From: Methylorubrum extorquens
GTDB lineage: Bacteria; Pseudomonadota; Alphaproteobacteria; Rhizobiales; Beijerinckiaceae
DNA: 32,000 nucleotides
Assembly: GCA_900234795.1 (NCBI GenBank)
Contig: LT962688.1
Location: forward strand, 2,160,001 to 2,192,000
Direction: 5' to 3'
Made by a program: the position numbers and the translations under genes
Part shown: positions 3,991 through 23,226 of the stretch, in pieces
Layout: every line of letters starts with the position of its first letter
Position numbering within the stretch: the stretch's first letter is position 1
Notes under the pieces: model-generated
What the model saw: the letters and a program-made list of their open reading frames with translations, nothing else
The model's database searches: none
Told to the model about the DNA's origin: nothing

Positions 3991-4314
3991 ATGGCGGCGA
4001 CCCCGCGCGAGATCAGGCTGACGGAAGAGCGCCGGCGCCTCGACGTGATCTGGGAGGATGGCACGGCCTCCCGCCTCACGGCCGCGACGCTTCGTGCCCA
4101 CAGCCGCAGCGCCGAGACCGTGCGTGCCGGGATTGACGGGCTCCCCCCCGCGCTGCCGCACGACATCGCGATCACCGACGTCGTGCCGGTCGGCGCCTAC
4201 GCTGTGAACCTCGTCTTCTCCGACGGGCACGACCGCGGGATCTTCCCCTGGTCCTACCTGCGCGCGCTCGGCGACGACACGAGCCCGTGCGCGGCCGACC
4301 GCGCGGCAGCGTGA
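3991..4314 (+). CDS. DUF971 protein (gamma-butyrobetaine hydroxylase-like N-terminal domain family)
   Basis: 107 aa. GGAGGA Shine-Dalgarno at 3978-3983. The pattern L-x-V-x-W-x-DG-x-x-S-x-L-x-A-x-x-LR-x-x-S-x-SAE ... Y-A-V-x-L-x-F-SDGH-x-x-GI-F-x-W-x-YLR is the DUF971 signature as I recall it. Confidence 0.8.
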   Translation: MAATPREIRLTEERRRLDVIWEDGTASRLTAATLRAHSRSAETVRAGIDGLPPALPHDIAITDVVPVGAYAVNLVFSDGHDRGIFPWSYLRALGDDTSPCAADRAAA

Positions 4315-4325
4315 GGGAGACGGCG

Positions 4326-6074
4326 ATGAGCGCAGCGCAAGACGCGATTCAGGACGCGACCTCGGAGGTCGCCTGCGACGTGCTGGTGATCGGCGGCGGC
4401 ACCGCCGGGCCGATGGCGGCGCTGAAGGCCAAGCTGCGCAACCCGGCGGCCCGGGTGATCTTGCTGGAGAAAGCCAACGTCAAGCGCTCGGGCGCGATCA
4501 GCATGGGCATGGACGGGCTCAACAACGCCGTCATTCCCGGCTACGCCACGCCGGAGCAGTACACCAAGGAAATCACCATCGCGAACGACGGCATCTGCGA
4601 TCAGGCGCCGGTCTACAAATATGCCGAAAACTGCTTCGAGATCATCCAGGAACTCGACCGTTTCGGCATCCGCTTCCAGCGCGACGGCAACGGCGATTAC
4701 GACGTCAAGAAGGTGCATCATCTCGGCACCTACGTGCTGCCGATGCCCAACGGCGACACCGTCAAGAAGGCGCTCTACCGGCAATTGCGCAAGGCGCAGG
4801 TGCTGATCTCGAACCGCTTCATGGCGACCCGGCTTCTCAACGCGCCCGACGGCGCGGTGGCCGGGGCAGTGGCGGTCAATACCCGCACCGCCGAGTTCCT
4901 GGTGATCCGCGCCAAGGCGGTGATCCTCTGCCTCGGGGCGGCCGGGCGGCTCGGCCTGCCGCATTCGGGCTATCTGTGGGGCACCTACGAGAACGCCGCC
5001 AATTCCGGCGACGGCTATTCGATGGCCTACCACGCGGGGGCCGGGCTCGCGAACCTCGAATGCTTTCAGATCAACCCGCTGATCAAGGACTATAACGGCC
5101 CCGCCTGCGCCTACGTCGCCGGGCCGTTCGGCGCCTATACAGCCAACAGCGAGGGCAACCGCTTCATCGAGTGCGACTACTGGTCGGGCCAGATGATGCA
5201 GGAATTCTACAACGAACTCTCGAGCGGCAAGGGCCCGGTCTTCCTCAAGCTCGACCATCTCCACGCCGACACGGTCTCGGAGATCGAGACGATCCTGCAC
5301 AAGGTCGAGCGGCCCTCGCGCGGACGCTTCCACGAGAACCGCGGTACCGATTACCGCCACCGTATGGTCGAGATGCACATCTCGGAGGTGGGTTTCTGCT
5401 CCGGCCACAGCGCGTCGGGCGTGTTCGTCGACGAATTCGCCCGCACCACCGTGCCGGGCCTGTACTCGGCCGGCGACATGGCCAACGTCCCCCACAACTA
5501 CATGCTCGGCGCCTTCACCAACGGGGCGGTGGCGGGTGAGCACGCGATCGACCATGCGGGCGCGATCGACCTGCCTGAGATCGATGCCGAGGCGGTGGCG
5601 CGCGAGCGCGAGCGGGTGCTGGCGCCGACGCGGCGCGCGGACGGCATTCCCCCGAACCAGATCGAGTACAAGACCCGCCGCTTCGTCAACGACTACCTGC
5701 AGCCGCCCAAGGTCACGGCGAAGATGGAGATCGGGCAGCGGCGCTTTGCCGAGATCCGCGAGGATCTGGAGACGCGGATGGTCGCCCGCGACAGCCACGA
5801 GCTGATGCGGGCGCTGGAGGCGTCCTCGATCCTCGACTGCGCCGAGATGGCCGCCCACGCCTCGCTCTACCGCACCGAGAGCCGCTGGGGCCTCTACCAC
5901 AACCGCACAGACTACCCCGAGAAGAACGACGCGGAGTGGTTCTGCCACACGATCCTGCGGAAGGTGGAGGGCCGCATGGTCAGCGAGAAGCGGCCGATCA
6001 CGCCGTACATCGTGCCGATCGAGGCGGACGAGCGCGGCGCCTACGACCGCCAGCGTGTCCGCAAGCAGGCTTGA
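4326..6074 (+). CDS. FAD-dependent flavoprotein of the fumarate reductase/succinate dehydrogenase superfamily, adenylylsulfate-reductase alpha (AprA)-like
   Basis: ATG at 4326 after GGGAGA (4314-4319). 582 aa. N-terminal dinucleotide fold DVLVIGGGTAGPMAA; later LGAAGRLG, SGDGYSMAYHAGA, GLYSAGDMA. Length and overall pattern resemble AprA-type proteins more than SdhA/FrdA (recollection, not a search). An adjacent small ferredoxin is in the AprB-like position. Confidence 0.8.
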   Translation: MSAAQDAIQDATSEVACDVLVIGGGTAGPMAALKAKLRNPAARVILLEKANVKRSGAISMGMDGLNNAVIPGYATPEQYTKEITIANDGICDQAPVYKYAENCFEIIQELDRFGIRFQRDGNGDYDVKKVHHLGTYVLPMPNGDTVKKALYRQLRKAQVLISNRFMATRLLNAPDGAVAGAVAVNTRTAEFLVIRAKAVILCLGAAGRLGLPHSGYLWGTYENAANSGDGYSMAYHAGAGLANLECFQINPLIKDYNGPACAYVAGPFGAYTANSEGNRFIECDYWSGQMMQEFYNELSSGKGPVFLKLDHLHADTVSEIETILHKVERPSRGRFHENRGTDYRHRMVEMHISEVGFCSGHSASGVFVDEFARTTVPGLYSAGDMANVPHNYMLGAFTNGAVAGEHAIDHAGAIDLPEIDAEAVARERERVLAPTRRADGIPPNQIEYKTRRFVNDYLQPPKVTAKMEIGQRRFAEIREDLETRMVARDSHELMRALEASSILDCAEMAAHASLYRTESRWGLYHNRTDYPEKNDAEWFCHTILRKVEGRMVSEKRPITPYIVPIEADERGAYDRQRVRKQA

Positions 6075-6088
6075 GACCGGAGACATCC

Positions 6089-6322
6089 ATGCCCCTCGCC
6101 CACCAGCCCAGTGCGGTCCCGGTCACCGTGGACCCGGAAAAATGCATCGCCGACAAGGGCTGCACGGTCTGCGTCGATGTCTGCCCCCTCGACGTCCTGC
6201 GGATCAGCGACCTCACCGGCAAGGCCTACATGAAGTACGACGAGTGCTGGTACTGCATGCCCTGCGAGACCGACTGCCCGACCGGCGCCGTCACCGTCCA
6301 GATCCCCTACCTGCTGCGGTGA
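6089..6322 (+). CDS. 2x[4Fe-4S] ferredoxin (short AprB-like partner)
   Basis: ATG 6089, 14 nt after the flavoprotein stop, preceded by GGAGAC. 77 aa with two cluster motifs: C-x6-C-x2-C-x3-CP (CIADKGCTVCVDVCP) and C-x2-C-x2-C-x3-CP (CWYCMPCETDCP). Confidence 0.85.
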   Translation: MPLAHQPSAVPVTVDPEKCIADKGCTVCVDVCPLDVLRISDLTGKAYMKYDECWYCMPCETDCPTGAVTVQIPYLLR

Positions 6323-6327
6323 GCCCG

Positions 6328-7299
6328 ATGCCCATCACCGATCCGTTCGAGGATTTTGGCGAAGTTGCCGAGATCGCCCGCGGCCTCGACGATGCCGACC
6401 CGGCGGTGCGCCGCGTCGCGGTCCTCGCGCTCGCCGAGACCGCCGACCCGGAGGCCGTGCCCCCGCTCGCCCGGGCCGCCGCCGATCCCGATCCGGACGT
6501 GCGGCGGCAGGCGGCCCTCTCGCTCGGCGGCTTCGACGGACCCGAGACGGCGGCGGCGCTGGCGGGCGCGCTCACCGATCCCGACCGTTCGGTCGCGACG
6601 GCGGCGGCCGAGAGCCTGACGGAGTTGAAGGATGCCCGCGCCGGCGATCCGCTGCTGCCGCTCGCCGGGCACGGCGATGCCTTCGTGCGGGCGGCGGCCC
6701 TGCGGGCGCTTCGGGGGCTGAGGCTGCCCGCCGCGCTCGGGCCCGCGGTTGCGGCGCTCGGCGATCCGGAGCCGGCGGTGCGGGCGCAGGGCGTCGGCGT
6801 CATCGCCTACCTGAAGCGGGAGGAGGCGCTGCCCTCGCTCATCGCCGCGACCCGCGACGCGGATGCCGAGGTGCGCCGCGCCGCGGTCGGCGGCCTCGCC
6901 TTCGCCCGCCACGCCAGCGCCGTCGAGGCGATCGCGGCAGCCCTGCACGACGCCGAGTGGAGCGTGCGCGAGACCGCCGCCGAGGCCCTTGGACGGGCCG
7001 GGACGGCCGAAGGTGCCGAAGCGAGCGGCGAGGTGCTGATCGCGGCGCTCGGCGACGCCACATGGCAGGTTCGCCAGAAGGCCCTGCGCAGCCTCGGGCG
7101 GCTCAGGTTCCGCCGCGCCGTGCCGACGGTGCTGGCGGCGTTGTCTGAGGAGATGGCGTCCCTGCGCAAGGAGGCGGCGGCCGCGCTCGGCGAGATCGCC
7201 GACCCGGCCGCGCAAGCGGGTCTGGAGGGCATCGCGAACGATCCCGATCCGGACGTGCGCAAGACCGCGCGCTGGGCGCTGGCGCGGCTGGCGGCGTAG
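6328..7299 (+). CDS. HEAT-repeat (PBS-lyase HEAT-like) protein
   Basis: ATG 6328, 5 nt after the ferredoxin stop. The longer track ORF from 6055 reads across the ferredoxin gene out of frame. About 10 repeats of D-P/A-x-x-x-V-R-x-x-A-x-x-A-L-G/A, e.g. DPAVRRVAVLALAE, DPDVRRQAALSLGG, DAEVRRAAVGGLAF, DPDVRKTARWALAR. Confidence 0.8.
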   Translation: MPITDPFEDFGEVAEIARGLDDADPAVRRVAVLALAETADPEAVPPLARAAADPDPDVRRQAALSLGGFDGPETAAALAGALTDPDRSVATAAAESLTELKDARAGDPLLPLAGHGDAFVRAAALRALRGLRLPAALGPAVAALGDPEPAVRAQGVGVIAYLKREEALPSLIAATRDADAEVRRAAVGGLAFARHASAVEAIAAALHDAEWSVRETAAEALGRAGTAEGAEASGEVLIAALGDATWQVRQKALRSLGRLRFRRAVPTVLAALSEEMASLRKEAAAALGEIADPAAQAGLEGIANDPDPDVRKTARWALARLAA

Positions 7300-7443: not shown

Positions 7444-7480
7444 GATACGGTTCCCGCTTTGATCAAGCGGAAACCGTATC
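7444..7480. terminator. Strong hairpin at the convergent junction between the HEAT-repeat gene and the Crp/Fnr gene (possible bidirectional terminator)
   Basis: GATACGGTTCCCGCTT (7444-7459), loop TGATC, AAGCGGAAACCGTATC (7465-7480): 16-nt arms with one mismatch. It overlaps the regulator's stop codon (7479-7481). There is no U-tract on either side, so intrinsic-terminator function is uncertain. Confidence 0.4.
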
Positions 7481-8243
7481 ACCCCTCGGTCAGGACGATC
7501 TCCTGCAGCCGCCCGGGCCGAACCAGGCGGATATGCGTCGCATCGACGGACACGATGCCCTCGCGCTGGAACCGCTTGAGCATCATCGTCACCCATTGCC
7601 GGGTCGAGCCGACGAGGGCCGCGAGTTCGTCGTGGGTGATGCGGCGGCGGATGATCACCGTGCCGTTCTCAGGGGTCCCGTAGAGGTCGCCGAGATTGAG
7701 AAGAAGCTGCGCCAGCCGCTCGATCACCGAGCGTGTGCCGAGCATCTGCGCCATGGCGGTGTAGCAGCGCCCCTTGGCCTCCAGCGCGGCGATGAGGCAG
7801 AGCGCGAAGCCCGGCATCTGGCGGATCAGCCCGCGCAGGGTCGCGCTCGACAGCACGGTGACGCGCACCGGCTCGATCGCCACGCCCGACCATTGATGGC
7901 AGCCGCCGCCATAGATGCTCGGGCCGCCGATGAAGTGGCCCGGCGTCCAGTAGGCCAGCGTCACCTGCCGGCCCGACGGCCCCGAATAGAACACCCGGAC
8001 CCGCCCCTCCTCGATCAGGAAGATGCCCTCGTGCGGCGCCCCTTGGGTAAAGACGCTCTCGCCGGGCGCGAGGCTCACCGTGCGGCCGGCGGCGCGCACC
8101 CGAGCGCTCTCGGCGGGGGTGAGCCCGTCGAGGAAGCCCGCTCCGTCGTCGAGCCCCTCGACCGTCTCGCTGAGGAACAGCGCACTGGCGATCAGGGGCG
8201 CCGGACGGCGGGGTTCGGACAGGGCGAGCGGTGCCGACGACAT
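7479..8243 (-). CDS. Crp/Fnr-family transcriptional regulator
   Basis: ORF 7479-8378; I favour the ATG at 8243 (MSSAPLAL...), with 8291 as an alternative. cNMP-binding-like beta-roll (GESVFTQGAPHEGIFLIEEGRVRVF). C-terminal HTH (ITHDELAALVGSTRQWVTMMLKRFQREGIV). Confidence 0.85.
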   Translation of the reverse strand: MSSAPLALSEPRRPAPLIASALFLSETVEGLDDGAGFLDGLTPAESARVRAAGRTVSLAPGESVFTQGAPHEGIFLIEEGRVRVFYSGPSGRQVTLAYWTPGHFIGGPSIYGGGCHQWSGVAIEPVRVTVLSSATLRGLIRQMPGFALCLIAALEAKGRCYTAMAQMLGTRSVIERLAQLLLNLGDLYGTPENGTVIIRRRITHDELAALVGSTRQWVTMMLKRFQREGIVSVDATHIRLVRPGRLQEIVLTEG

Positions 8244-8353: not shown

Positions 8354-8562
8354 AACACATTCTTCTCCTGTCAAACATTTCGCGAGAAGAGATTTTCTTC
8401 GGCTCAAGAACAGTTGCGCATCGATCCAGAAACTCGACTTTCCAACGAAATTAATTGCTCGCCGCAACGGCTGTCCGAACGGCACATCCACGAGGTCGCC
8501 GCCCTCGCGAGCGGCCGACGCACTCGCCTCGACGGACTTGCCTCGCCTCACGGAGCCTCACG

Positions 8563-10005
8563 GTGACACAGCATATCCCGCTCACCCGCCGCCTCGCAGC
8601 GCTCCTCCTGACCGCCACGGTACTCGGCGCGGCGGGCTCCGGGGCAGCCCGGTCCGAGACGATCCGGGTCGCCGTCGGCACGCAGGACACCACGATCAAT
8701 TGCGCCACCGGCGGCCTGCTGATCCGCGAGTTGAAGCTCCTAGAGAAGTTCCTGCCCCGCGACGGGCGCTACAAGGACGCGACCTACGACATCCAGTGGC
8801 GCAACTTCACCAGCGGCGCGCCGCTCACCAACGAGATGGTGGCGGGCAAGCTCGATCTCGGGGCGATGGCCGACTTTCCCGGCTCGCTCAACGGCCACGC
8901 CTTCGCCAAGGCCGGGCGCCGCTCGCTGTTCATCTCGGTGCTCTCGGGCAGCCTGCACGGCAGCGGCAACGGCGTCGTCGTGCCGAAGGAATCCCCCGTG
9001 CAGTCGTTCGCCGAACTCAAGGGCAAGACGATCTCGGTGCCGTTCGCCTCGACCGCGCACGGGCTGCTCTTGCGGGCGGTGAAGGCGCAGGGATGGGAGC
9101 CCGGCCGCGACGTCACCATCATCACCCAGGCCCCGGAGGTGGCGGGCGCCGCGCTGCTCGCCAACAAGATCGAGGCACATGCCGACTTCGTGCCCTTCGC
9201 CGAGCTGTTCCCCTGGCGCGGCTTCGCCCGCAAGATCTACGATGGCGCCCAGGCCGACGCCCCGACCTTCCACGGCGCGCTCGCCGATGCCGACTATGCC
9301 GAGAAGTACCCGGAGATCGTTACCGCCTACCTGCGCGCGGCACTCGAAGCGGACCGGTTGATCGCCGCCGAGCCGGAAAAGTATTCCGAACTCATCGAGC
9401 GGGTGACGGGGATCGAGGCGGAGGTCGCCTACCTGTTCCACGGGCCGCTCGGCCTGCAGACCCGCGACGTGACCTGGAAGCCGGCCTACCGGCAGGCGGT
9501 AAAGACCTCCTTCGAGACGCTCAAGCTGCTGAAGAAGGCCGATTCCGACATCGACCTCGACCGCTTCGTCGATGACCGCTTCATCCGCGCGGCGGCGGCG
9601 CAGGCCGGTCTCGACTACGAGGCGCGGCTCAGGGACGAGGCGCCGCTGCCGCTCGCCGCGCAGGACAGCGCAACGGGCAAGCCGATCACTGATCCGTCCC
9701 GCGTGGCGCAACTCTGGATCCGCGGCGAGGACAAGGTCCGCCCCTACGCCTCGCCGGAAGCGGCGTTCGCGGCGCTCGCCGAGCTGGAAGGCCAGGGGCG
9801 CGAGGCCCGCGCCGTCTACGCCCAGGATCGGGGCAACGGGATCAAGCTGTTCGCCACCCAGGCCTGGTACGTGCGCGACGCGCAAGGGCATCTGAGCGCC
9901 TTCCTGCTCAAGGGCGACGCACAGGCCCACGCCGCGGCGAAAGGGGGCGACGTGCTCGATTTCGCCGCCGCGCGGAGCGGCCACGCGCGGCTCTCGGCCC
10001 GATGA
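8563..10005 (+). CDS. Periplasmic ABC-transporter substrate-binding protein (NitT/TauT, NMT1/SsuA-like) with an extra ~135-aa C-terminal domain
   Basis: GTG start at 8563 gives VTQHIPLTRRLAALLLTATVLGAAGSGAARS (signal peptide). The earlier part of ORF 8455-10005 is Arg/Pro-rich junk. The SBP body ends near DRFVDDRFIRAA (~nt 9600). The rest is an additional domain (see findings). Confidence 0.85.
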   Translation: MTQHIPLTRRLAALLLTATVLGAAGSGAARSETIRVAVGTQDTTINCATGGLLIRELKLLEKFLPRDGRYKDATYDIQWRNFTSGAPLTNEMVAGKLDLGAMADFPGSLNGHAFAKAGRRSLFISVLSGSLHGSGNGVVVPKESPVQSFAELKGKTISVPFASTAHGLLLRAVKAQGWEPGRDVTIITQAPEVAGAALLANKIEAHADFVPFAELFPWRGFARKIYDGAQADAPTFHGALADADYAEKYPEIVTAYLRAALEADRLIAAEPEKYSELIERVTGIEAEVAYLFHGPLGLQTRDVTWKPAYRQAVKTSFETLKLLKKADSDIDLDRFVDDRFIRAAAAQAGLDYEARLRDEAPLPLAAQDSATGKPITDPSRVAQLWIRGEDKVRPYASPEAAFAALAELEGQGREARAVYAQDRGNGIKLFATQAWYVRDAQGHLSAFLLKGDAQAHAAAKGGDVLDFAAARSGHARLSAR

Positions 10006-10889
10006 GCCCCTTGATGAACCCCTTGATGAGCCCGTCGGTGAGCGCCTCCGGAATCGAGACGGCCGCCCCGGTCCGCGTGCCGCGCGGGCGGCCGGTCCGG
10101 TTTGCGCGACCATCGACGCTCGGGCGCTTGGCGCTGCGCGGCGTCGCCCTGGCCCTGAGCCTGCTCGCTTGGCACCTCGCGGCGAGCAGCCGGCTCGATC
10201 TCGGCCTCGTCACCTTCCGCAACGTGCCGACTCCGGCGGCCGCCGCGCAGGCGGCCTGGGCGCTGGTCCACGCCCCCGCGCTGCCGACCCATCTGGGCGC
10301 CAGCCTCGCCCGGGTGCTGTCGGGCTTCCTCGCCGCTTTGGGCGTGGGCGTCGCCCTCGGCCTCGCCATCGGCCGGTCGCGGCTCGCCCGCGACCTGCTG
10401 CTGCCGCCGCTCGAAGTGCTGCGCCCGATCCCGGCGGTGGCCTGGATCCCGCTGGCGATCCTGATGTTCCCGTCCTCCGAGGTCTCGATGGCCTTCATCA
10501 CCTTCACGGGCGCGCTGTTCCCGATCCTGCTCAACACCGTGCACGGGGTGGAATCGGTGCATCCCCGGCTTGTCGCCGCCGCCCGCAGCCTCGGCGCGGG
10601 CGATGCCGCGATCCTGCGCGAGGTGATCTTGCCGGGCGCCGCGCCCAGCATCGTGACGGGGGCGGCGATCGGCATGGGCACGGCGTGGTTCTGCCTCGTG
10701 ACCGCCGAGATGATCTCCGGCCAGTACGGGATTGGCTACTTCACCTGGGAATCCTATACACTGCAGAACTACGACGACATCGTCGTCGGCATGCTGCTGA
10801 TCGGCCTCCTCGGGATGGGATCCAGCCTCGTCGTGCGCTGGCTCGGCGACCGGGCGACACCCTGGGTCGGCGCGGGAGGCCAGCGATGA
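10002..10889 (+). CDS. ABC-transporter permease (NitT/TauT family)
   Basis: ATG overlaps the SBP stop (ATGA at 10002-10005). Multi-TM protein with an EAA-like loop (AARSLGAGDAAILREVILPGAAPSIVTG). In-frame alternative starts at 10014, 10026 and 10038. Confidence 0.9.
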   Translation: MSPLMNPLMSPSVSASGIETAAPVRVPRGRPVRFARPSTLGRLALRGVALALSLLAWHLAASSRLDLGLVTFRNVPTPAAAAQAAWALVHAPALPTHLGASLARVLSGFLAALGVGVALGLAIGRSRLARDLLLPPLEVLRPIPAVAWIPLAILMFPSSEVSMAFITFTGALFPILLNTVHGVESVHPRLVAAARSLGAGDAAILREVILPGAAPSIVTGAAIGMGTAWFCLVTAEMISGQYGIGYFTWESYTLQNYDDIVVGMLLIGLLGMGSSLVVRWLGDRATPWVGAGGQR

Positions 10890-11767
10890 GCGCGGGAATG
10901 GCACCGGTCCAGGCCGGCCCTCTCACCGGCACCGATCCTCTTGCCGACACCGATCCCTTTGCCGACGGTCACGTCGCCATCCGGGATGGGGCGATCCGGC
11001 TCGGTCGGGGCGATGCGGCGTTCGACGTGGTCGAGAACATCAGCTTCGACATCCCAGGCCGCCAGTTCGTCTGCATCCTCGGGCCCTCGGGCTGCGGAAA
11101 GTCGACCCTGCTCGGGGCGGTGGCCGGGCACCTCGCCCTGTCGCGCGGCAGCGTCAGCCTCGACGGGCGGGCGATCGCCGGGCCGCATCCCGACCGCGGC
11201 ATCGTCTTCCAGCAGCACACCCTGTTCCCCTGGCTCAGCGTGATCGACAACGTCGCCTTCGGCATGAAGATGAAGGGCGTCGGCCGCAGCGAGCGCCGGG
11301 AACGGGCCCGGGCGCTGCTGGCGCAGGTCGGGCTGTCCGACTTCGCCGAGCGCTATCCGGCCGAATTGTCGGGGGGCATGCAGCAGCGGGTGGAGATCGC
11401 CCGCGCGCTGATCAACCGGCCTCGGGTCCTGCTGATGGACGAGCCGTTCGGGGCACTCGATGCGCAGACGCGGCTGACGATGCAGGAACTGCTGCTCGAC
11501 ATCTGGACGCGCCACCGCACCACGATCCTGTTCGTGACGCACGACATCGACGAGGCCCTGTTCCTGGCGGATCGGCTCGTCGTGATGACGCCGCGGCCGG
11601 GGCGCATCCTCGACGACATTCCCCTTGATTTCGGGCGCCCGCGGGACCGCGGCCTGATCACCGATCCGCGCTTCACGGCGATCAAGCAGCGCTGCCTCGC
11701 GCTCCTTCACAGCGATCCCGGCCATGTGCCGCTCGCCCGCTTGAGCCCGATCGGAGTTCCGGCATGA
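10886..11767 (+). CDS. ABC-transporter ATP-binding protein (NitT/TauT family)
   Basis: ATGA overlap with the permease stop (10886-10889). Walker A GPSGCGKST, signature LSGGMQQR, Walker B VLLMDEPFGALD, H-loop VTHD. Confidence 0.92.
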   Translation: MSAGMAPVQAGPLTGTDPLADTDPFADGHVAIRDGAIRLGRGDAAFDVVENISFDIPGRQFVCILGPSGCGKSTLLGAVAGHLALSRGSVSLDGRAIAGPHPDRGIVFQQHTLFPWLSVIDNVAFGMKMKGVGRSERRERARALLAQVGLSDFAERYPAELSGGMQQRVEIARALINRPRVLLMDEPFGALDAQTRLTMQELLLDIWTRHRTTILFVTHDIDEALFLADRLVVMTPRPGRILDDIPLDFGRPRDRGLITDPRFTAIKQRCLALLHSDPGHVPLARLSPIGVPA

Positions 11768-12420
11768 CCTCGAATGCCCCCTCGTCGCCGACCATCGCGT
11801 ACTATTTCAGCTTCCTCTCGCTGTGGTCCTATGTCGGCAGTCGCGCCTTCCGCGACCTCGCCGAACGGAACGGCGCGCGGATCGTCTACAAGCCGGTCGA
11901 TCTGATGGCAGTCTTCGCCGCCGGCGGCGGCAAGCCCGTCAAGGAGAGGCCCCTGCAGCGGCAGGCCTACCGCCTCGTCGAAATGCAGCGCTGGCGCCGC
12001 ATCCGCGGCATCCCGCTGGTGCTGCACCCGAAATTCTACCCGGCCGACCCCTCCCTCGCCCACCGGGTCCTGCTGGCCGCCCTCGACGAGGGCAGCGCGG
12101 TCGCCGACTTCGTCCATGCCGGCCTCAGCGCCGTCTGGGCGGACGAACGCGACATCGCCGATCCCGGCACGATCATCCGGCTCGCCGATGCGGCCGGGCT
12201 CGACGGGAAACGCCTGCTCGCCCGAGCCGACGAGCCGGCGTTCCGCGAGGCCGAGGCGGCTCTGACCCGCGAGGCGATCGGGCGGCAGGTGTTCGGGGCG
12301 CCGTTCTATGTCTACCGCGATGAGCCGTTCTGGGGTCAGGACCGGCTCGACCTGCTGGAGGCGGCGATCTCGGGCTCGGACGCGCCGATCCCGCTGCCGG
12401 ACCTCTCCGCTTCCGGCTGA
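11764..12420 (+). CDS. DsbA-family thioredoxin-fold protein, 2-hydroxychromene-2-carboxylate isomerase-like
   Basis: ATGA overlap with the ATPase stop (11764-11767). IAYYFSFLSLWSYVGS near the N-terminus and GAPFYVYRDEPFWGQDRLDLLE near the C-terminus are characteristic of HCCA-isomerase/DsbA-like proteins (recollection). Confidence 0.8.
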   Translation: MTSNAPSSPTIAYYFSFLSLWSYVGSRAFRDLAERNGARIVYKPVDLMAVFAAGGGKPVKERPLQRQAYRLVEMQRWRRIRGIPLVLHPKFYPADPSLAHRVLLAALDEGSAVADFVHAGLSAVWADERDIADPGTIIRLADAAGLDGKRLLARADEPAFREAEAALTREAIGRQVFGAPFYVYRDEPFWGQDRLDLLEAAISGSDAPIPLPDLSASG

Positions 12421-13745
12421 GCCCGGCTCTGCCCGAGCAGGGCGTTGAGCAGGATGGCCGCGATCGCGGTGAGCAGGATCGGATCCTTCACGATCGGCCC
12501 GAACGCGTCGGGCACGGCGCGGAAGAAGAGCGGCTGCACGATCGGGATCAGGCCGATCCCCAACGAGGCGGCGATGATCAGCGCGTCGCGGCTGCCCGCG
12601 CGGGCGTAATCGACCTGGGCCAGGATGCGGATGCCGGTGGCTGCCACCATGCCGAACATCACCAGCGCCGCCCCGCCGAGCACCGGCTGCGGGATCGAGG
12701 CCGCCAGATAGGCGACCTTGGGCACGAGGCCGAGCACCAGCATGATCCCGCCGGCGGCCGCGCAGACCCAGCGGCTGTGCACGCCGGTGAGTCCGACGAG
12801 GCCGACATTCTGCGAATAGGACAGGTAGGGAAACGTGTTGAGCAGGCCGCCGATCAGCGTGCCGAGCGCGTCGGCGCGCAGGCCCCGGCGGATGTCCTCG
12901 GTCCCGATCTTGCGCCCGGTCATGACGCCGAGCGCCAGGAACATCCCGGTCGCCTCGATGAAGACGATCGTCATCACGAGGCACAGGATCAGGCAGGGCA
13001 CGAGGTGGAAGGTCGGCAGCCCGAACTGCAGGGGCAGCACCACCCGCAGCCACGGTTCGGCGCCCAGGCCCTCGAAGCTCGTCCAGCCGAGTGCCAGGGT
13101 GACGGCGTATCCGAGCCCGATCCCGAGGAGCACGGCGACGCGCCCGACGAAGCCCGGACCGAACCGGGCAATGAGCAGGGTCGCGGCGAGCACGCCCGCC
13201 GCCACCGCGACCGTGCCGGGCGCACCGAACGCGGCGGTGCCCGCACCCCCGCCCGCCCAGCCGACGGCGACGCGGGTGAGCGCGATGCCGATCATCAGGA
13301 GGATCGTGCCGGTCACGACCGGTGGGAAGAACCGCATCACCTGGCCGATGAAGGGCGTGACAAGGAGCCCGTAGAGGCCGCCGACGATCACCGCGCCGTA
13401 GATGCCGGTGAGGCCGACGCCGGGTATCGCCGCGATGGCGAGCAGCGGCTGGATCGCCACCGCGGTCACGCCCATGATGACGGGAAGCCGGATGCCGAAC
13501 GGGCCGATGCCCACCGTCTGGATCAGCGTGGCGATGCCGCAGGCGAACAAGTCGGCGTTGATGAGGAGCGCGATCTGGTCCTTCGGCAGGTGCAGCGCCC
13601 CGCCGACGATCAGCGGCACGGCGATGGCGTTGGCGTACATGACGAGCACGTGCTGCAAACCGAGCACGAACAGGCGCGGCGCGGGCGGCACCGCATCGAC
13701 GCCGTCGCGCGGCGGGCCGCCGGGAAGGGGATCGACCGGCCTCAT
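12336..13745 (-). CDS. Nucleobase:cation symporter-2 (NCS2, xanthine/uracil permease-type) transporter
   Basis: 469 aa. LGLQHVLVMYANAIAVPLIVG, multiple TM segments and SYSQNVGLVGLTGVHSRWV are typical NCS2 motifs. The start ATG overlaps the stop of the upstream monooxygenase gene (ATGA at 13742-13745). Confidence 0.88.
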   Translation of the reverse strand: MRPVDPLPGGPPRDGVDAVPPAPRLFVLGLQHVLVMYANAIAVPLIVGGALHLPKDQIALLINADLFACGIATLIQTVGIGPFGIRLPVIMGVTAVAIQPLLAIAAIPGVGLTGIYGAVIVGGLYGLLVTPFIGQVMRFFPPVVTGTILLMIGIALTRVAVGWAGGGAGTAAFGAPGTVAVAAGVLAATLLIARFGPGFVGRVAVLLGIGLGYAVTLALGWTSFEGLGAEPWLRVVLPLQFGLPTFHLVPCLILCLVMTIVFIEATGMFLALGVMTGRKIGTEDIRRGLRADALGTLIGGLLNTFPYLSYSQNVGLVGLTGVHSRWVCAAAGGIMLVLGLVPKVAYLAASIPQPVLGGAALVMFGMVAATGIRILAQVDYARAGSRDALIIAASLGIGLIPIVQPLFFRAVPDAFGPIVKDPILLTAIAAILLNALLGQSRAQPEAERSGSGIGASEPEIAASSRSSRS

Positions 13746-14788
13746 CCCTTCACTCGCGAAAACACCTGCGCGGCGAAGCGGGCCATCTCCGCCTCGAACG
13801 GCTGGAATTGCAGCATGAACAGCTCGATTCCCGCCGCGTGGAAGGCGCGGATGCGCTCGGCCACCCCATCGTAGCTGCCGACGAGCCCGGCCGCCGTGCC
13901 GCCGTTGGTGCCGACATGGTGCGCGGCCGCCGCATCGGTCTTGGCGAACATCACGCTCGCCGCGTCCGTGCGCGCCCGGGTGTCGGCGCGGATGGCCTCA
14001 TCGCGGCGGCTCAAGCTCAGAAGCCGGGCGAATTCGTCCTGCGCCTCGGCTTCCGTCTCACGGGCGATCACGAAGGCCGAGAGCCCGTAGCGCAGACGGC
14101 CCTGCGCGGCCGGGCGCCGGGCGACGTCGGCGATGAGATCGGCGACCGCGGCCAGCGGCTGGCCGTTGATGAACCAGACGTCGCCGTGATCGGCCACCAG
14201 CGCGCGGGCCGGCTCGGACTCGCCGCCGACATAGATCGCCGGCCGCGCCCGGTAAGTGCCCGCGGGCTTGAGCTGATAGTCCTCGACGCGGAAGTGCCGG
14301 CCCTCGTGGGTGACGCGCTCGCCCCGCAGCAACCGGTCCACCAGGGCGATCCATTCGCGGCCATAGGCGTAGCGCTCGTCATGGGCCGGGAACGGCAGGC
14401 CGGCCCGCTCGAATTCGGCGCGGTTCCAGGCGTTGACGAGGTTGAGGGCGAAGCGCCCCCGGCTGACCTGCTCGATCTGCAGCGCCATCTTGGCGAGCAA
14501 CACCGGATGGTAGAGCCCCGGCTTGATCGCCGCGATGATCTCGATCCGCTCGGTGAGCGCCGCCAGCGCGGCCGAGGCGGTCCAGGCCTCCAGCTGGTCG
14601 CGGGTCTCGTCGTAGGGGTTCACCGTATGCTGGGCGACGAGGACGGAATCGTAGCCGAGGCGCTCGGCCTCGAGCACGAGGGCGCGGTTGCGCGCCCAGG
14701 AGGCGTCGTGCGGCTCGTCCGGATCGTGGCGGGCGGCGCGGGAGCCGTGGACCGGCGCCCAGACGCCGAAGCGAAGCGGATGGCTCAT
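13742..14788 (-). CDS. Luciferase-like (LLM) flavin-dependent monooxygenase, SfnG/SsuD-clade-like
   Basis: Only the last 348 aa of track ORF 13742-16222 are real, starting at MSHPLRFGVWAPV (ATG 14788). Contains RGRFALNLVNAWNRAEFERAGLPFPAHDERYAYGREWIALVDRL and GRHFRVEDYQLKPAG. These resemble dimethylsulfone/alkanesulfonate monooxygenases as I recall them. Confidence 0.85.
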   Translation of the reverse strand: MSHPLRFGVWAPVHGSRAARHDPDEPHDASWARNRALVLEAERLGYDSVLVAQHTVNPYDETRDQLEAWTASAALAALTERIEIIAAIKPGLYHPVLLAKMALQIEQVSRGRFALNLVNAWNRAEFERAGLPFPAHDERYAYGREWIALVDRLLRGERVTHEGRHFRVEDYQLKPAGTYRARPAIYVGGESEPARALVADHGDVWFINGQPLAAVADLIADVARRPAAQGRLRYGLSAFVIARETEAEAQDEFARLLSLSRRDEAIRADTRARTDAASVMFAKTDAAAAHHVGTNGGTAAGLVGSYDGVAERIRAFHAAGIELFMLQFQPFEAEMARFAAQVFSRVKG

Positions 14789-14793
14789 CGCGC

Positions 14794-15762
14794 TCACCCG
14801 CGTCCTGCCGGCGGCTGCCAGAGCGATACGGCGGTGGCGTCGAGCCGGCGCGGGATCAGCCCGGCCTCGTGGAAGGTGTCGGCGATGGCCTGCTGCTCGG
14901 AGAGCGCGGCCCGATCGACCGCCTTGACCGCGTAGGAGCGCCGCTCGTTGACGGTGGCGACCACCGCCGGCGGCAGGTCTCCCCAGATCGGCGCCAGCAG
15001 CGCGACGGCCGCCGACGGGTTGGCCTTCACCCATTGTCCCGCCTCGACCAGGGCGGAAAAGACCGTGGCGACGACCTCGGGCTGCTCGGCGGCGAAGCTG
15101 TCGTTGACCGTGTAGTAGCGGTTGTAGCTCGACAGGCCGGTGGCGTCGGTCAGCACCCGCACCGGGCGCTTGGCCTGTACGATGGCCAGGAACGGATCCC
15201 AGATCGACCACGCCTCGATGCCGCCCTGCTCGAACGCCGCGAGCCCGTCCGCCGCCTCCAGATAGGCCGGGCGGATGTCGGCGAATCGCAGGCCCCCCCG
15301 CTTCAGCGCGCCCGCGAGGATGAAGTGGCAGCCCGAGCCCTTCGAGACGCCGACCGTACGGCCTTTCAGATCCGCGATCGTGCGGATCGGCGACTCGTCC
15401 GGCACGATGATCGCCTCGGCCTGCGGCGAACCGGCCTCCATAGCGTAGAAGGTCAGCGGGGCTCCGGCCGATTGGGTGAAGATCGGCACCGCGTCGGCCA
15501 CATCGGCGTGGAGATCGACCGCGCCGGTGTTCATCGGTTCGAGCACCTTGGTGAACAGGTGCCAGCTCACGCCGAGCCCTTGCGCGCCGAGCCGCTCCTC
15601 CAGGGTGCCCCGCGCCTTCAGCACGGTGAGGAGCGTCGAGGAGCGCTGATAGCTGAGCTTCACCGTCCGTCCGGCGCGGGCCGGACCGGAGCGACCGAGG
15701 ACGAGGCCGGCGGCGAGTGTGGCACTCGATGAAAGGGCGAAGTGGCGGCGGGTCAGGCTCAT
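14794..15762 (-). CDS. Periplasmic sulfonate-type (SsuA-like) substrate-binding protein
   Basis: Real start MSLTRRHFALSSSATLAAGLVLG (twin-arginine-like signal) at ATG 15762; the upstream part of track ORF 14794-16146 is out-of-frame. SBP-like body (TIADLKGRTVGVSKGSGCHF, EAWSIWDPF). The start overlaps the cytochrome c stop (ATGA at 15759-15762). Confidence 0.85.
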   Translation of the reverse strand: MSLTRRHFALSSSATLAAGLVLGRSGPARAGRTVKLSYQRSSTLLTVLKARGTLEERLGAQGLGVSWHLFTKVLEPMNTGAVDLHADVADAVPIFTQSAGAPLTFYAMEAGSPQAEAIIVPDESPIRTIADLKGRTVGVSKGSGCHFILAGALKRGGLRFADIRPAYLEAADGLAAFEQGGIEAWSIWDPFLAIVQAKRPVRVLTDATGLSSYNRYYTVNDSFAAEQPEVVATVFSALVEAGQWVKANPSAAVALLAPIWGDLPPAVVATVNERRSYAVKAVDRAALSEQQAIADTFHEAGLIPRRLDATAVSLWQPPAGRG

Positions 15763-16343
15763 CGGGTCTCCGTGTGCGCGGTGGGCCGGGCGGAAGGGCG
15801 AGCGGAGGGATTCTGCGGCGCGATGTCGGGGCGCGGATCGGCGGTGAAGCCGTCGCGGTTCGGCATGGCGACCCTGGGCAGGGAGGCCGCATCGAGGCTT
15901 GCCTCCTCCGGCAGCAGGCCGTTGAGGTGCAGCACATAGGCGCTGACCGCGTAGGTTTCGTCCGGGCTGAGCGATTGCGGCGCGTCGAACGGCATTGCCC
16001 GGCGCACGTAGTCGAACAGGGTCGTGGCATAGGGCCAGAAGCTGCCGACCGTGCGCAGGGGTTTTGCGCTCGCGAGGCTGCCCCGGCCGCCGGCCAGCGG
16101 CTCGGCGGCGGCCCCCTCGCCGCGGGCGCCGTGGCAGCCGGCGCAACGCGCGGCGAACAGGACCGCGCCGTCGCGCACGCTGCCGTGGCCGGGCGGCAGG
16201 CCCTGGCCGTCGGGCCGGACATCGATGTCCCAGGCGGCGATGGTCTCAGGGCTTGCTGGGCGGCCGATGCCGAGGGGGTCCGCCGCGGCCGGGCCGGCGA
16301 GGGTGAGGCTCAGGACGAGCGGGAGAAGCGCCTCAGGCCGCAT
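15759..16343 (-). CDS. Monohaem c-type cytochrome, SoxD/SorB-like partner of the molybdoenzyme
   Basis: Signal peptide MRPEALLPLVLSLTLAGPAAA. One CxxCH (CAGCH). WDIDVRPDGQGLPPG and FWPYATTLFDYVRRAMPF motifs, as in SoxD-type cytochromes (recollection). The start overlaps the upstream gene end by 11 nt. Confidence 0.8.
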   Translation of the reverse strand: MRPEALLPLVLSLTLAGPAAADPLGIGRPASPETIAAWDIDVRPDGQGLPPGHGSVRDGAVLFAARCAGCHGARGEGAAAEPLAGGRGSLASAKPLRTVGSFWPYATTLFDYVRRAMPFDAPQSLSPDETYAVSAYVLHLNGLLPEEASLDAASLPRVAMPNRDGFTADPRPDIAPQNPSARPSARPTAHTETR

Positions 16344-17553
16344 AGGTCACCGCCCCGTTCGCGCCGAGGCTCCAGCCGAACACCGCGTTGTTGTGGTAAA
16401 AGGAGCGGGTGCCGCGCACGGCGACCAAGGCCTCGCGACTCGGCTGCACGTAGCCGGTCTCGTCCCGCGCCCGGCTCAGCAGTTTGGCCGGTCCGCCCTC
16501 CCAACGCCACGGCAGGCGGAAGCGGGTGAAGCAGCGCGGCAGCACCGGCCCTTCCAGATGCGCCTCCGCCCAAGAGGCGCCGCCATCGGTCGAAACCTCG
16601 ACGCCGGCGATGCGCCCGCGCCCGGTCCAGGCGAGGCCCCGGATCTCGTGAAAGCCGGGCTCCCGAAGCTGCTGGCCGCCCGACGGCGCGGTGATGACGG
16701 ACTTGGCCTCCATCACGAAGGTGAATTGCCGCGCCGTGCCGTCCGGCATCAGGTCGGTGTATTTCGAGGTTTCCTCCCGCGTCTGGAACGGCCGGTCGCC
16801 GACCTTCAGGCGGCGTAGCCACTTGATGCTGAGGTTGCCCTCCAGCCCCGGCAGGAACAGCCGCAGGGGATAGCCCTGCTCCGGCCGCAGCCGCTCGCCG
16901 TTCTGCGCGTAGGCGAGGATCGCCCCGTCGAGCGCGTCGAGGGGGATCGAGCGGGTCATGGCGCAGGCATCCGCCCCCTCCGCCAGGATCCAGGCGGCGC
17001 CCGGCTGCACGCCGACCTCGGCGAGCAGGGTCGAGAGCTCGACGCCGGTCCACTCGGCGCAGGAGATCAGGCCGTGGCTGTCCTGCACCGTCCAGTCGGG
17101 CTTGGCCCCGAGCCAGGGCGTGTTGCCCGAACATTCGAGGAAATGCAGCCGTGAGACCGCGGGGAAGCGGAGGATGTCGTCCATGGTGAGGATCAGCGGG
17201 CGCGCGACGAGGCCGTGCACCACGAGGCGGTGCCGGTCCGGATCGATCGCCGGGATGCCGGCGTGGTGGCGCTCGTAATGCAGGCCGTTGGGCGTGAGGA
17301 TGCCGTGCAGGCCATGGAGCGGCGTCACCGTGGCCACCGCCCCGGGAAAGGGCGGCGGCAGCCGGGGATAGCGCGCAAGCGTCTCCCGCGGGCCGGGCCG
17401 GCCATAGCCCGGAGCGGTGGCGCCCTGCTCGCGGGTCCAGGGCGGCACGTCGAGGGGGCCTGCCTCCGCCAGGGCTCCGGTGGCGGCGCCCGCCCCGGCA
17501 AGCGAGCCGGCCAGGCGTAGGAAGGCGCGGCGGTTTTCCATGACCTCGCCCAT
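16333..17553 (-). CDS. Molybdopterin sulfite dehydrogenase / sulfite-oxidase-family enzyme (SoxC/SorA-type)
   Basis: Twin-arginine signal (M)ENRRAFLRLAGSLAGAGAATGALA. NGLHYERHHAGIP, HGLVARPLILTMDDILRFPAVSRLHFLECSGN and the conserved Cys ligand region. Start is ambiguous between ATG 17553 and ATG 17541. Confidence 0.9.
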   Translation of the reverse strand: MGEVMENRRAFLRLAGSLAGAGAATGALAEAGPLDVPPWTREQGATAPGYGRPGPRETLARYPRLPPPFPGAVATVTPLHGLHGILTPNGLHYERHHAGIPAIDPDRHRLVVHGLVARPLILTMDDILRFPAVSRLHFLECSGNTPWLGAKPDWTVQDSHGLISCAEWTGVELSTLLAEVGVQPGAAWILAEGADACAMTRSIPLDALDGAILAYAQNGERLRPEQGYPLRLFLPGLEGNLSIKWLRRLKVGDRPFQTREETSKYTDLMPDGTARQFTFVMEAKSVITAPSGGQQLREPGFHEIRGLAWTGRGRIAGVEVSTDGGASWAEAHLEGPVLPRCFTRFRLPWRWEGGPAKLLSRARDETGYVQPSREALVAVRGTRSFYHNNAVFGWSLGANGAVTYAA

Positions 17554-17554
17554 C

Positions 17555-18595
17555 CTATCGCGCGCTCGCCTCGGCCTGGGCCGCCTCGAAGAAGCGGGAG
17601 TCGAACAATCCCTCCGTCGGCGGCGTCTGCTCGCTGATGCCGAGCTTGGTCTGGAGGGCCAGCATCGCGCCGGTCGCCGCCACGATGGTGCGGGGATCGG
17701 CGACATACTGGGTCGCCGGCGAGGCGAGCGCGTTGCGCAGGGTCGCGGCGGTGACGATGCCCTTGCCGAGCGCGGCCTCCACCGCGGGAAGCGCCCGCTC
17801 GGGGTCGCGCTTGATCAGATCGACGGCCCGCACGATCGCCGAGACGAGGGTGCGCACGGCCGCCGGATTCTGCTCGAGGAAGGCGCCGCGCACCGCCACA
17901 ACGGTGCCGGGCTGGCCGGGAAACAGCTCGCTGCCGTTAGCGACGAGGCGGATCTGTGGGTTGCGCTCGCGGATGATGCTGAGGCCCGGTTCGCGCACCG
18001 TCGCGGCCTCGACCGCGCCGGCGAGGATCGCCTGCTGCGCCGCGTCGATGCCGAGTGTCAGGATCTGCACGTCGGCCGGATCGACCTTGTGGACCTCGCG
18101 CAGCCAGTAGGACAGGTTGGTGTAGGGGATCGAACCGGGCGGCTGCGTGGCGATCTTGGCCGGGCGGCCCGTCTCCTCCCGGAAGCGCCGAAAGGCGGCG
18201 GCCGGTGCCGTGCCGTCGGTGAGCGGTCCGGCGAGCTTGGCGCCCGCCACGAGCACGTTCTCGCCGATAGCGGTCGCCGCCACCACCCGCAGATCGACCC
18301 CGCGCGTCCGCCCGATCGCCACCGGCGTGATCCCGGCGACGTAGACATCGACCGTGCCGCTCGCCGCTGCCTGCACCGCGTTCGGCCCGGAATCGAACAG
18401 CGTTACGGTGGGCTTGAGCCCGCCGGCCCCGAGCCAGCCCTCCCGCTCGGCGACGAAGAGCGGCGCGGCACCGAGCACGGGGATTGCGCCGATCCGCACC
18501 GGCAGGGTCTGAGCCTGGCCTTGCGCCAAGGCGGCACCCGAGGCACCGAACAGCGCGAAGAGAAGAATTGCCCACCGGATGAAGTGCGATGACAT
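17555..18595 (-). CDS. Periplasmic substrate-binding protein (NMT1/SsuA/TauA-like), first gene of the minus-strand operon
   Basis: Start taken at MSSHFIRWAILLFALFGASGAALA (ATG 18595, signal peptide). LPVRIGAIPVLGAAPLFVAEREGW and GTVDVYVAG are typical of this SBP fold. The stop is 1 nt from the molybdoenzyme start. Confidence 0.8.
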   Translation of the reverse strand: MSSHFIRWAILLFALFGASGAALAQGQAQTLPVRIGAIPVLGAAPLFVAEREGWLGAGGLKPTVTLFDSGPNAVQAAASGTVDVYVAGITPVAIGRTRGVDLRVVAATAIGENVLVAGAKLAGPLTDGTAPAAAFRRFREETGRPAKIATQPPGSIPYTNLSYWLREVHKVDPADVQILTLGIDAAQQAILAGAVEAATVREPGLSIIRERNPQIRLVANGSELFPGQPGTVVAVRGAFLEQNPAAVRTLVSAIVRAVDLIKRDPERALPAVEAALGKGIVTAATLRNALASPATQYVADPRTIVAATGAMLALQTKLGISEQTPPTEGLFDSRFFEAAQAEASAR

Positions 18596-18643
18596 GATCG
18601 TTCTTTTATTTGCGAGATCGAGATAAGATCTATTCATATCCTT

Positions 18644-23215: not shown

Positions 23216-23226
23216 GCAAGCTCTGA

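Follow-up and report, generated by a model that had tools for sequence, protein, structure and literature searches.

An AprA-like flavoprotein, a short ferredoxin and a HEAT-repeat protein form a conserved module with an SsuA/TauA-like importer and a candidate role in sulfur scavenging in Methylorubrum extorquens

Introduction

A stretch of 32,000 nucleotides of the Methylorubrum extorquens genome (contig LT962688.1 of assembly GCA_900234795.1, positions 2,160,001 to 2,192,000; hereafter the window, in whose numbering all positions are given) raises the question of which reaction is served by four adjacent genes for a DUF971 protein, a flavoprotein resembling the alpha subunit of adenylylsulfate (APS) reductase (AprA), a short ferredoxin resembling its beta subunit (AprB) and a HEAT-repeat protein. 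A preliminary description of the sequence had read these genes as a divergent, soluble AprBA-like oxidoreductase with the DUF971 and HEAT proteins as possible partners, and this reading stands, the nearest characterised proteins being of the AprA type. It had also named no experimentally defined function for the four-gene arrangement; in agreement, the published literature that we searched assigns none to this gene cluster, and the database names of its proteins are generic or automatic.

We tentatively propose, with somewhat less than even confidence, that the module imports a sulfonated compound and releases sulfite from it by ferredoxin-driven reduction, for sulfur scavenging. In soils the main pool of sulfur consists of organosulfur compounds, which also make up a large pool in the sea. 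To our knowledge, bacteria reach this sulfur either with enzymes that depend on O2 (SsuD, TauD, sulfatases) or with radical or nitrogenase-like enzymes that are strictly anaerobic.

Results

A conserved four-gene core

The core of the module consists of four co-directional coding sequences on the forward strand, which encode a DUF971/GBBH-like_N protein (3991..4314, 107 amino acids; Pfam PF06155, 80.7 bits), the AprA-like flavin adenine dinucleotide (FAD) flavoprotein (4326..6074, 582 amino acids; NCBIfam NF006131/PRK08275), the AprB-like 2x[4Fe-4S] ferredoxin (6089..6322, 77 amino acids; Fer4_7) and a HEAT-repeat protein (6328..7299, 323 amino acids, about 10 PBS-lyase-type repeats; HEAT_2, 187.7 bits). 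Read directly from the sequence, the junctions leave 11 nt between the TGA stop of the DUF971 gene (4312-4314) and the flavoprotein ATG at 4326, 14 nt between the flavoprotein stop (6072-6074) and the ferredoxin ATG at 6089, which is preceded by GGAGA, and 5 nt between the ferredoxin stop (6320-6322) and the HEAT ATG at 6328. Both these spacings and the bracketing of the module by a DUF971 protein and a HEAT protein of about ten repeats are as first described. Third-position GC is 0.88-0.89 in the DUF971 and flavoprotein genes. A Pfam scan of the substantial open reading frames (ORFs) with coding signal in the 32-kb window confirmed that sat, qmoABC and aprM are missing there, and none of these partners is found in the annotated related loci either. 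An Rfam scan of the window gave no riboswitch or other RNA element, and a promoter and terminator scan together with an inverted-repeat search 5' of the DUF971 and binding-protein genes gave no candidate Crp-type palindrome.

Relatives of the module were found in at least 592 species of Alpha-, Beta- and Gammaproteobacteria in one genome scan, in genera that include Bradyrhizobium, Mesorhizobium, Sinorhizobium, Methylobacterium, Rhodopseudomonas, Nitrobacter, roseobacters and Paraburkholderia. We counted gene presence in the 80 best loci, each from a different species. The ferredoxin occurs in 77 of them, and in 76 its gene follows that of the flavoprotein directly; the HEAT protein occurs in 75 and DUF971 in 72. 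A large SsuA/TauA-like binding protein accompanies them in 65, a permease in 63 and an ATPase in 67, and a homologue of the Crp-family regulator in 60. An FNR-type NAD(P)H:ferredoxin reductase is encoded in 45 of these loci, often immediately upstream of the flavoprotein. Where full flanks are available, core and ATP-binding cassette (ABC) transporter genes occur together in 45 of 53 loci. Conservation of the four-gene set is far beyond chance, and its adjacency, which the preliminary description knew from a single sequence, is kept across the three proteobacterial classes.

The importer belongs to the module

The extent of the module is seen from gene order in other hosts. Burkholderiales and Pseudomonas reactans have a GntR regulator followed by flavoprotein, ferredoxin, binding protein, permease, ATPase, HEAT protein and DUF971; in a locus with a flavoprotein-HEAT fusion (L086), the order is GntR, ferredoxin, binding protein, permease, ATPase and flavoprotein::HEAT. 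In these lineages a GntR/UTRA regulator replaces Crp. Since the importer lies inside the enzyme operon in these genomes, the functional unit of the window would, by its gene content, run from 3991 to at least 11767, interrupted on the opposite strand by the Crp regulator, and it probably continues to 12420. The module as read here therefore extends past the interval 3991-7299 first assigned to it, and the importer, which had been noted as a dedicated one next door, is indeed present but belongs to the module itself rather than to its surroundings.

The importer genes follow on the forward strand. An oversized SsuA/TauA-like periplasmic binding protein (8455..10005, start probably near 8563; TIGR01728 and PDB matches) is followed by an SsuC/TauC-type permease (10002..10889; BPD_transp_1, with matches to the SaoP, NtrB, SsuC and TauC models), whose start and stop codons overlap both neighbours, and by a TauB/SsuB-type ATPase (10886..11767; ABC_tran, TauB model 265 bits). 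The best PDB matches of the binding protein are TauA 6SSY and SsuA 2X26. We transferred the taurine contacts of TauA (PMC6906117) onto it via a HMMER alignment. In TauA numbering, the equivalents of the sulfonate-contacting G61 and S131/T132 are kept, G79 is replaced by Ala and Gln30 falls outside the aligned region, while both ligands of the taurine amine are changed (E106 to Asn, D205 to His). Because these two of the sulfonate-contacting positions are kept and the amine ligands changed, the ligand is probably a sulfonate-type oxyanion with a non-cationic tail, as far as aligned residues can tell. Taurine itself was ruled out as a substrate, the binding protein being without the TauA amine ligands Glu106 and Asp205. 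The protein also carries a C-terminal domain of about 130 amino acids (window positions ~9600-10002) that is conserved in all three of the cluster types described below and matches NosL weakly (21.9 bits, cut-off 24); a copper site in this NosL-like domain is unsupported, as it has no conserved Cys, His or Met.

Between core and importer, a Crp-family regulator with cNMP-binding and HTH_Crp_2 domains (Pfam, NCBIfam) is encoded on the reverse strand (7479..8243, longest ORF to 8378). It has no N-terminal Cys cluster, which rules out an FNR-type oxygen sensor. Downstream of the importer, the start codon of a gene for a DsbA-like/kappa-GST (HCCA-isomerase-like) protein (11764..12420, forward strand; PF01323, 119.6 bits) overlaps the ATPase stop. 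This protein has no CxxC motif, and its gene, present among 85 related loci only in the window and in one other (L024), is a lineage-specific addition; it may hint at a lineage-specific glutathione-dependent step.

Three types of cluster

By identity of their binding protein to that of the window, the related clusters fall into three types. Type 1 (at least 60% identity) comprises the window, some Bradyrhizobium and Sinorhizobium, Burkholderiales and P. reactans, and has no FNR gene in the cluster. Type 2 (40-46%) is found in many Bradyrhizobium and in Rhodopseudomonas, as well as in a second Methylobacterium paralogue, with FNR adjacent. Type 3 (35-39%), from roseobacters, marine Gammaproteobacteria and Nitrobacter, has extra membrane, cytochrome and copper genes: a 226-amino-acid membrane protein with HSCSH and VVCCG motifs is encoded between the permease and ATPase genes, and the ATPase gene is followed by a dihaem cytochrome c4, usually SCO1/SenC and PCu(A)C and sometimes a TlpA-like thioredoxin (17112-18729 in locus L048; 13852-14391 and 18675-20645 in L042; 16324-18463 in L004). 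These extra genes suggest a periplasmic copper or thiol-redox step.

Some Methylobacterium and Methylorubrum genomes (loci L073, L078, L079 and L082) carry a second, paralogous cluster, in which the flavoprotein is ~70% identical to that of the window, the binding protein is of type 2 and FNR is encoded downstream. Two versions of the module can thus occur in a single genome. In Hyphomicrobium sp. LHD-15 (L005, 10001-12747), the flavoprotein gene is followed directly by the HEAT gene, with ferredoxin, large binding protein and Crp absent nearby, and the pair is divergent from an ssuA-ssuD-ssuC-ssuB-flavin reductase operon.

The flavoprotein lies outside the AprA/PAPS-reductase clade

The flavoprotein, whose sequence is 100% identical to P0001 from M. 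extorquens, has the Pfam content FAD_binding_2 plus Succ_DH_flav_C and is a full-length match to NF006131 (1096.9 bits, cut-off 587; residues 9-582 on model positions 3-576 of 577). Every other profile hidden Markov model (HMM) of interest stays below its cut-off: the AprA models TIGR02061 (145.2 vs 641.75) and NF005331 (262 vs 557), the SdhA and FrdA models (80-160 bits, cut-offs 567-930) and, also far under, the NadB, TfrA and TcuA models. Its best PDB match is 8A8O, the alpha subunit of the AprA-type phosphoadenylylsulfate (PAPS) reductase of Methanothermococcus thermolithotrophicus (MtPAPSR; E 4e-56), and the next is A. fulgidus AprA (1JNR, E 6e-39), with E. coli SdhA far behind (4e-22).

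We built a tree, by neighbour-joining only and with bootstrap, from matches to the flavoprotein in 1.84 billion representative proteins. The family proper, whose members are at least 58% identical and include a 925-amino-acid flavoprotein-HEAT fusion (P0122), forms one clade with a second tier of relatives at 36-42% identity (bootstrap 100). AprA and PAPS reductase form a distinct clade, also with bootstrap 100, and no characterised non-Apr enzyme groups with the flavoprotein. The tier-2 flavoproteins always have a 64-66-amino-acid ferredoxin beside them and, once, a Crp regulator; their neighbourhoods held no HEAT protein, DUF971, ABC importer or informative pathway genes.

Judged from its sequence, the flavoprotein is thus AprA-type rather than Sdh/Frd-type, yet lies outside the AprA/PAPS-reductase clade. 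The AprA-like pattern first attributed to it holds in that its closest solved relatives are 8A8O and 1JNR, but it does not extend to membership of AprA, given the separate clade and the scores below the AprA cut-offs. An AlphaFold2 model of the flavoprotein, based on an alignment of 30 sequences, none of them less than 79% identical, had a mean predicted local distance difference test score (pLDDT) of 54, with active-site and capping regions below 50, and was discarded.

Residues that bind APS are replaced

Reference sequences were rebuilt from HMMER alignments and then aligned with the flavoprotein family. The FAD-proximal Asn-A74 and His-A398 of AprA are retained as Asn66 and His361; the pair is common to the family, its tier-2 relatives and the Apr clade, and is absent from the other AprA-like sequences sampled. 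Lys267-Asp268 of AprA is likewise retained. Arg-A265, present in 9 of 9 Apr-clade sequences, is replaced by an invariant leucine (Leu252), which also stands at the equivalent of MtPAPSR Arg237 (Af Arg265). Similarly invariant in the family are Glu82 in place of Tyr-A95, Tyr221-Glu222 in place of Trp234-Tyr235 and Val137 in place of Gln-A145; Arg-A260 has become Phe or Tyr, and Arg-A317 has become Lys302 (Lys in 7 of 9 sampled family members). The positions of the MtPAPSR Lys120-Arg121-Ser122 loop are occupied by Thr/Ser135, Tyr136 and Val137, and this PAPS-specificity loop is longer in the family (KKVHHLGTYVLPMPNG). Several acidic residues are specific to the family and tier 2, and so is Cys358, which precedes His361 by three positions.

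The loss of APS-binding residues and the position outside the AprA/PAPSR clade make a sulfonucleotide substrate unlikely; the two glutamates and the leucine where AprA holds the phosphosulfate count against it in the same way. The preliminary description had considered sulfite, a sulfonucleotide or an organosulfonate-derived intermediate. With the APS ligands replaced, the second of these becomes unlikely, while the link to sulfur is upheld.

The residues of succinate dehydrogenase and fumarate reductase are also missing. The histidine for covalent FAD attachment is absent (SdhA His45 is Gly, in an RSG motif as in AprA, vs RSH in SdhA); in E. coli SdhA numbering, His242 is changed to Asn, Thr244 to Leu and Arg286 to Gly; and the SdhA Arg399 segment is absent, as in AprA. 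The arginine of SdhA 'GANRLGGNS' is missing.

Ferredoxin, HEAT protein and DUF971

The ferredoxin is a Fer4_7 dicluster protein with eight cysteines in two complete motifs (C19-x5-C25-x2-C28-x3-C32P and C53-W54-x-C56-x2-C59-x3-C63P). As first described, it has no C-terminal tail of the AprB kind. In AprB this tail wraps AprA; the window ferredoxin stops just past the second motif. Its sequence is highly conserved. It scores 35.6 with the aprB model TIGR02060 (cut-off 135.65), and the AprB chains 3GYX_B and 1JNR_B are ranks five and six among its PDB matches, after multi-cluster polyferredoxin-type chains. W54, which follows the first Cys of motif 2 (DECWYCMPCE.DCP), is present in at least 90% of 71 distinct aligned sequences and would correspond to the electron-transfer Trp-B48 of AprB, an equivalence that comes from aligned ranges and not from a residue-level alignment. 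By its motifs the ferredoxin is AprB-like, with the CWxC tryptophan typical of AprB.

The HEAT protein contains five double-repeat HEAT_2 stretches, that is about 10 repeats, closest to consensus PBS-type HEAT repeats; it has 0 Cys, 2 Met and no cofactor motifs. It matches the C-terminal half of NF010374 (PRK13800), a model of flavoprotein-HEAT fusions. Together with the natural 925-amino-acid fusion P0122, this bears out the earlier suggestion that the HEAT protein is a partner of the flavoprotein.

DUF971 matches two uncharacterised structures, 3LUU (E 6e-15) and 2L6N. Its FSDGH-RG..P..YL motif is invariant across cluster types, and a CxCAxC triad is kept in some of them and absent from the window copy and its type. 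A role of generic DUF971 in Fe-S maintenance has been proposed from cofitness data in a preprint on randomly barcoded transposon sequencing (RB-TnSeq), which treats generic DUF971 alone (bioRxiv 10.1101/072470).

Sulfur-gene neighbours and sulfur-poor proteins

In Rhizobiales, the clusters adjoin ssuADCB(E), SfnG-, SfnB- and TauD-like genes and genes for a SoxCD-type sulfite dehydrogenase. Low Cys+Met content is a signature of proteins made under sulfate starvation. In the window, Cys+Met amounts to 0.7% of the binding protein and 0.6% of the HEAT protein. Across clusters, the mean for the binding protein is 1.10% in type 1 vs 2.9% in types 2/3 (p 6e-9), and for the HEAT protein 0.66% vs 2.3-3.0% (p 4e-8). 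This depletion in type 1 is seen also where sulfur genes are not nearby, in the operons of Pseudomonas and Burkholderiales. The type-1 binding and HEAT proteins carry the sulfur-starvation composition signature.

Discussion

Proposed function

We infer a sulfonated substrate, the reductive direction in the window's own cluster and, by analogy, flavin N5-adduct chemistry. In this proposal, the SsuA/TauA-family importer (8455-11767) would bring in an X-SO3- compound, most likely an organosulfonate, with a sulfate ester or a thiosulfonate also possible. Electrons would pass from NAD(P)H to a ferredoxin-NADP reductase, which many related clusters encode, from there to the 77-amino-acid 2x[4Fe-4S] ferredoxin and on to the FAD of the flavoprotein. 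By analogy with AprA, the reduced FAD would attack the sulfur via N5, the X-S bond would break, and sulfite would be freed for assimilation with no need for O2. The HEAT protein may bind the flavoprotein stoichiometrically as a scaffold, and DUF971 may have an accessory role, possibly in Fe-S maintenance.

An importer joined to one enzyme is the operon logic of tauABCD and ssuEADCB. The window module shares with these systems the set of binding protein, permease and ATPase beside one desulfonating enzyme, the transporter family and the sulfur-depleted proteins; unlike it, they use TauD and SsuD, which require O2 and are unrelated to AprA, and their binding proteins are 130-190 amino acids shorter than that of the window, with its weak NosL-like C-terminal domain. 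FNR-type reductases in 45 of 80 clusters point to reduction. A functional analogue is the isethionate reductase IsrBHDK with SsuCAB of Rhodobacter capsulatus, in which an importer is combined with O2-independent release of sulfite from a sulfonate by reduction, for assimilation (PMC11423573). That enzyme is nitrogenase-like, ATP-dependent and served by a radical-SAM partner, with no homology to the window flavoprotein, and its sulfite release is demonstrated genetically, whereas ours is a proposal.

Several observations weigh against this function. Clusters of the window's own type lack FNR, and the reductive direction has to be extrapolated to them from types 2 and 3. The latter two types are not depleted in Cys and Met, and the proposed mechanism leaves the extra genes of type 3 unexplained. 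The operons of Pseudomonas and L086 carry GntR/UTRA regulators and are not flanked by sulfur genes. The binding protein scores below the cut-off of the SsuA family model TIGR01728 (109 bits vs 163.5), and the sister pairing of the flavoprotein clade with the Apr clade has a bootstrap of just 53%. In chemical terms, a nucleophile attacking a sulfonate sulfur would have to displace carbon, a poor leaving group unless activated, and Asn74 and His398 may have been retained for general FAD chemistry and not for a sulfite adduct.

A more specific claim, which we consider doubtful, is that flavoprotein, ferredoxin and HEAT protein constitute a new class of O2-independent desulfonating enzyme, derived from AprA, in which reduced FAD attacks the sulfur of the imported substrate. 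Glu82, Glu222 and Cys358 would in that case stand in for the arginines and tyrosines that bind the nucleotide and would supply the leaving group with a proton.

Other explanations

The closest characterised protein being the MtPAPSR alpha subunit (E 4e-56; PMC10322725), the module might instead be an assimilatory APS or PAPS reductase that turns an endogenous sulfonucleotide into sulfite with ferredoxin as donor. Shared features are ~29% identity over residues 14-540, an FAD alpha subunit with a short 2x[4Fe-4S] beta subunit and its conserved Trp, the equivalents of Asn74 and His398, and an assimilatory setting, to which the sulfur-starvation context of the window and the FNR donors of related clusters would be suited. 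In addition, AprAB-like pairs without the AprB tail, from Clostridia and archaea, have been proposed to be assimilatory in the DiSCo paper (PMC8477390); judged by their description alone, we take these pairs to be the MtPAPSR-like clade and not the proteobacterial family. We nevertheless regard such a reductase as improbable. The window flavoprotein falls in a separate clade with 100% bootstrap; its APS/PAPS-binding residues are replaced, among them Arg237, Trp206-Tyr207 and the Lys120-Arg121-Ser122 loop of the methanogen enzyme, and both it and the ferredoxin score below the AprA and AprB cut-offs. The window contains neither sat nor cysC, the methanogen system has no HEAT protein, DUF971 or ABC importer, and an importer embedded in the operon would have no role for an intracellular nucleotide.

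Canonical AprBA (A. fulgidus 1JNR/2FJA; D. gigas 3GYX) likewise shares with the window pair the fold family, non-covalent FAD (RSG) and a ferredoxin-type beta subunit, and its flavin N5-sulfite adduct mechanism is plausible for the window flavoprotein. It differs in its APS ligands, in the AprB tail and in sat, qmoABC and aprM, all of which are replaced or missing in the window, where the pair stays below the HMM cut-offs; hosts of the module live as aerobic heterotrophs and methylotrophs. In sulfur oxidisers AprBA works reversibly, which would allow cytoplasmic sulfite detoxification in the oxidative direction, a flavin-sulfite adduct being resolved by a nucleophile other than AMP and electrons leaving via ferredoxin. 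Sulfite-producing SsuD/SfnG-type enzymes are neighbours, and SoxCD-type sulfite dehydrogenase genes lie near in the window and in Bradyrhizobium. This would leave the dedicated importer unexplained, and to a sulfur-starved cell sulfite is a desired product rather than waste; moreover, FNR-type partners as a rule pass on electrons taken from NAD(P)H, and MtPAPSR showed no reverse reaction (PMC10322725). Of the explanations considered here, sulfite detoxification appears the hardest to credit.

It is also unlikely, if somewhat less so than a sulfonucleotide reductase, that the flavoprotein reduces or dehydrogenates an imported sulfur-free compound, for example an enoate or a substituted acid of the fumarate, urocanate or tricarballylate kind, and that its sulfur neighbours in Rhizobiales are incidental. 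Membership of the fumarate-reductase superfamily agrees with this, as do the self-contained GntR/UTRA operons without sulfur neighbours in Pseudomonas reactans and L086 and the absence of sulfur depletion from types 2 and 3; the invariant Cys358 near His361 and the acidic residues could be the proton donor. The window flavoprotein is a full member of NF006131 (PRK08275), and its HEAT partner matches the C-terminal part of NF010374 (PRK13800), families that go by the generic name 'fumarate reductase/succinate dehydrogenase flavoprotein subunit' with no tested function. This name is misleading, because the Sdh/Frd catalytic residues (His242, Thr244, Arg286 and the Arg399 region) are missing, and the TcuA, NadB and Frd models remain far below their cut-offs. 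Among solved structures, TauA and SsuA resemble the binding protein most, the cluster stands repeatedly beside ssu genes in Rhizobiales, and the sulfur depletion of binding and HEAT proteins extends to the operons of Pseudomonas and Burkholderiales. The remaining probability we leave to some explanation not yet thought of.

Significance

In this module the known AprBA-type flavoenzyme scaffold is combined with new partners and probably acts on a new substrate. If the complex is indeed a new class of desulfonating enzyme, sulfonate sulfur could be reached by a third route, based on flavin, in addition to the O2-dependent SsuD/TauD oxygenases and the anaerobic glycyl-radical or nitrogenase-like enzymes, and flavin-based desulfonation would take place in many hundreds of proteobacterial species. 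The APS-reductase scaffold would have been re-tooled for a non-nucleotide substrate, and a ferredoxin-driven desulfonating enzyme would close a gap for facultative organisms living in microoxic places, for example root nodules, the rhizosphere and biofilms. The module also gives testable roles to a HEAT-repeat partner and a DUF971 paralogue. At minimum, the database name 'fumarate reductase/succinate dehydrogenase flavoprotein' is wrong and can be corrected.

Other features of the window

Downstream of the module, positions 13742-28612 form a sulfur-economy island in which several enzymes have almost no Cys or Met. An SfnG-like monooxygenase (13742-14935) has 1.3% Cys+Met, an SfnB-like protein (21421-22662) 0.5% and a 2-oxoglutarate (2OG)-Fe(II) oxygenase (26265-27020) 0%; a MetY-like O-acetylhomoserine sulfhydrylase of 440 amino acids (27290-28612) contains 1 Met and 0 Cys (0.2%). 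These Cys/Met-poor enzymes look like sulfur-poor starvation isozymes. The other SsuA-like binding proteins of the island have 0.8-1.4% Cys+Met.

At 15759-17706, a SoxC-type sulfite dehydrogenase (TIGR04555, 564 bits, cut-off 420) is encoded next to a cytochrome c gene, a SoxD-like partner, and the two lie in this sulfur-acquisition island and not in a sox cluster; the same SoxC/cytochrome c pair flanks the module in Bradyrhizobium (L001). Between an SsuA-like binding-protein gene and the SfnB-like gene, positions 18735-21149 encode an 804-amino-acid protein with strong coding signal (third-position GC 0.90), for which we found a marginal DUF3604 match (24.7 bits, one short stretch) and no NCBIfam family.

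The island also includes GroES (22922-23215, Cys+Met 1%), followed by a GroEL split over three reading frames: 23251-23868 corresponds to Cpn60 1-192, 23865-24884 is a weak middle part and 24082-24876 corresponds to Cpn60 332-489. This GroEL copy (23251-24884) is frameshifted or decayed, or else the result of a sequencing error. Upstream of the module, a GGDEF-EAL gene (832-2868) lies in a stretch of lower GC (0.57-0.59 vs ~0.70 in the rest of the window), a possible sign of foreign origin or of an island boundary.

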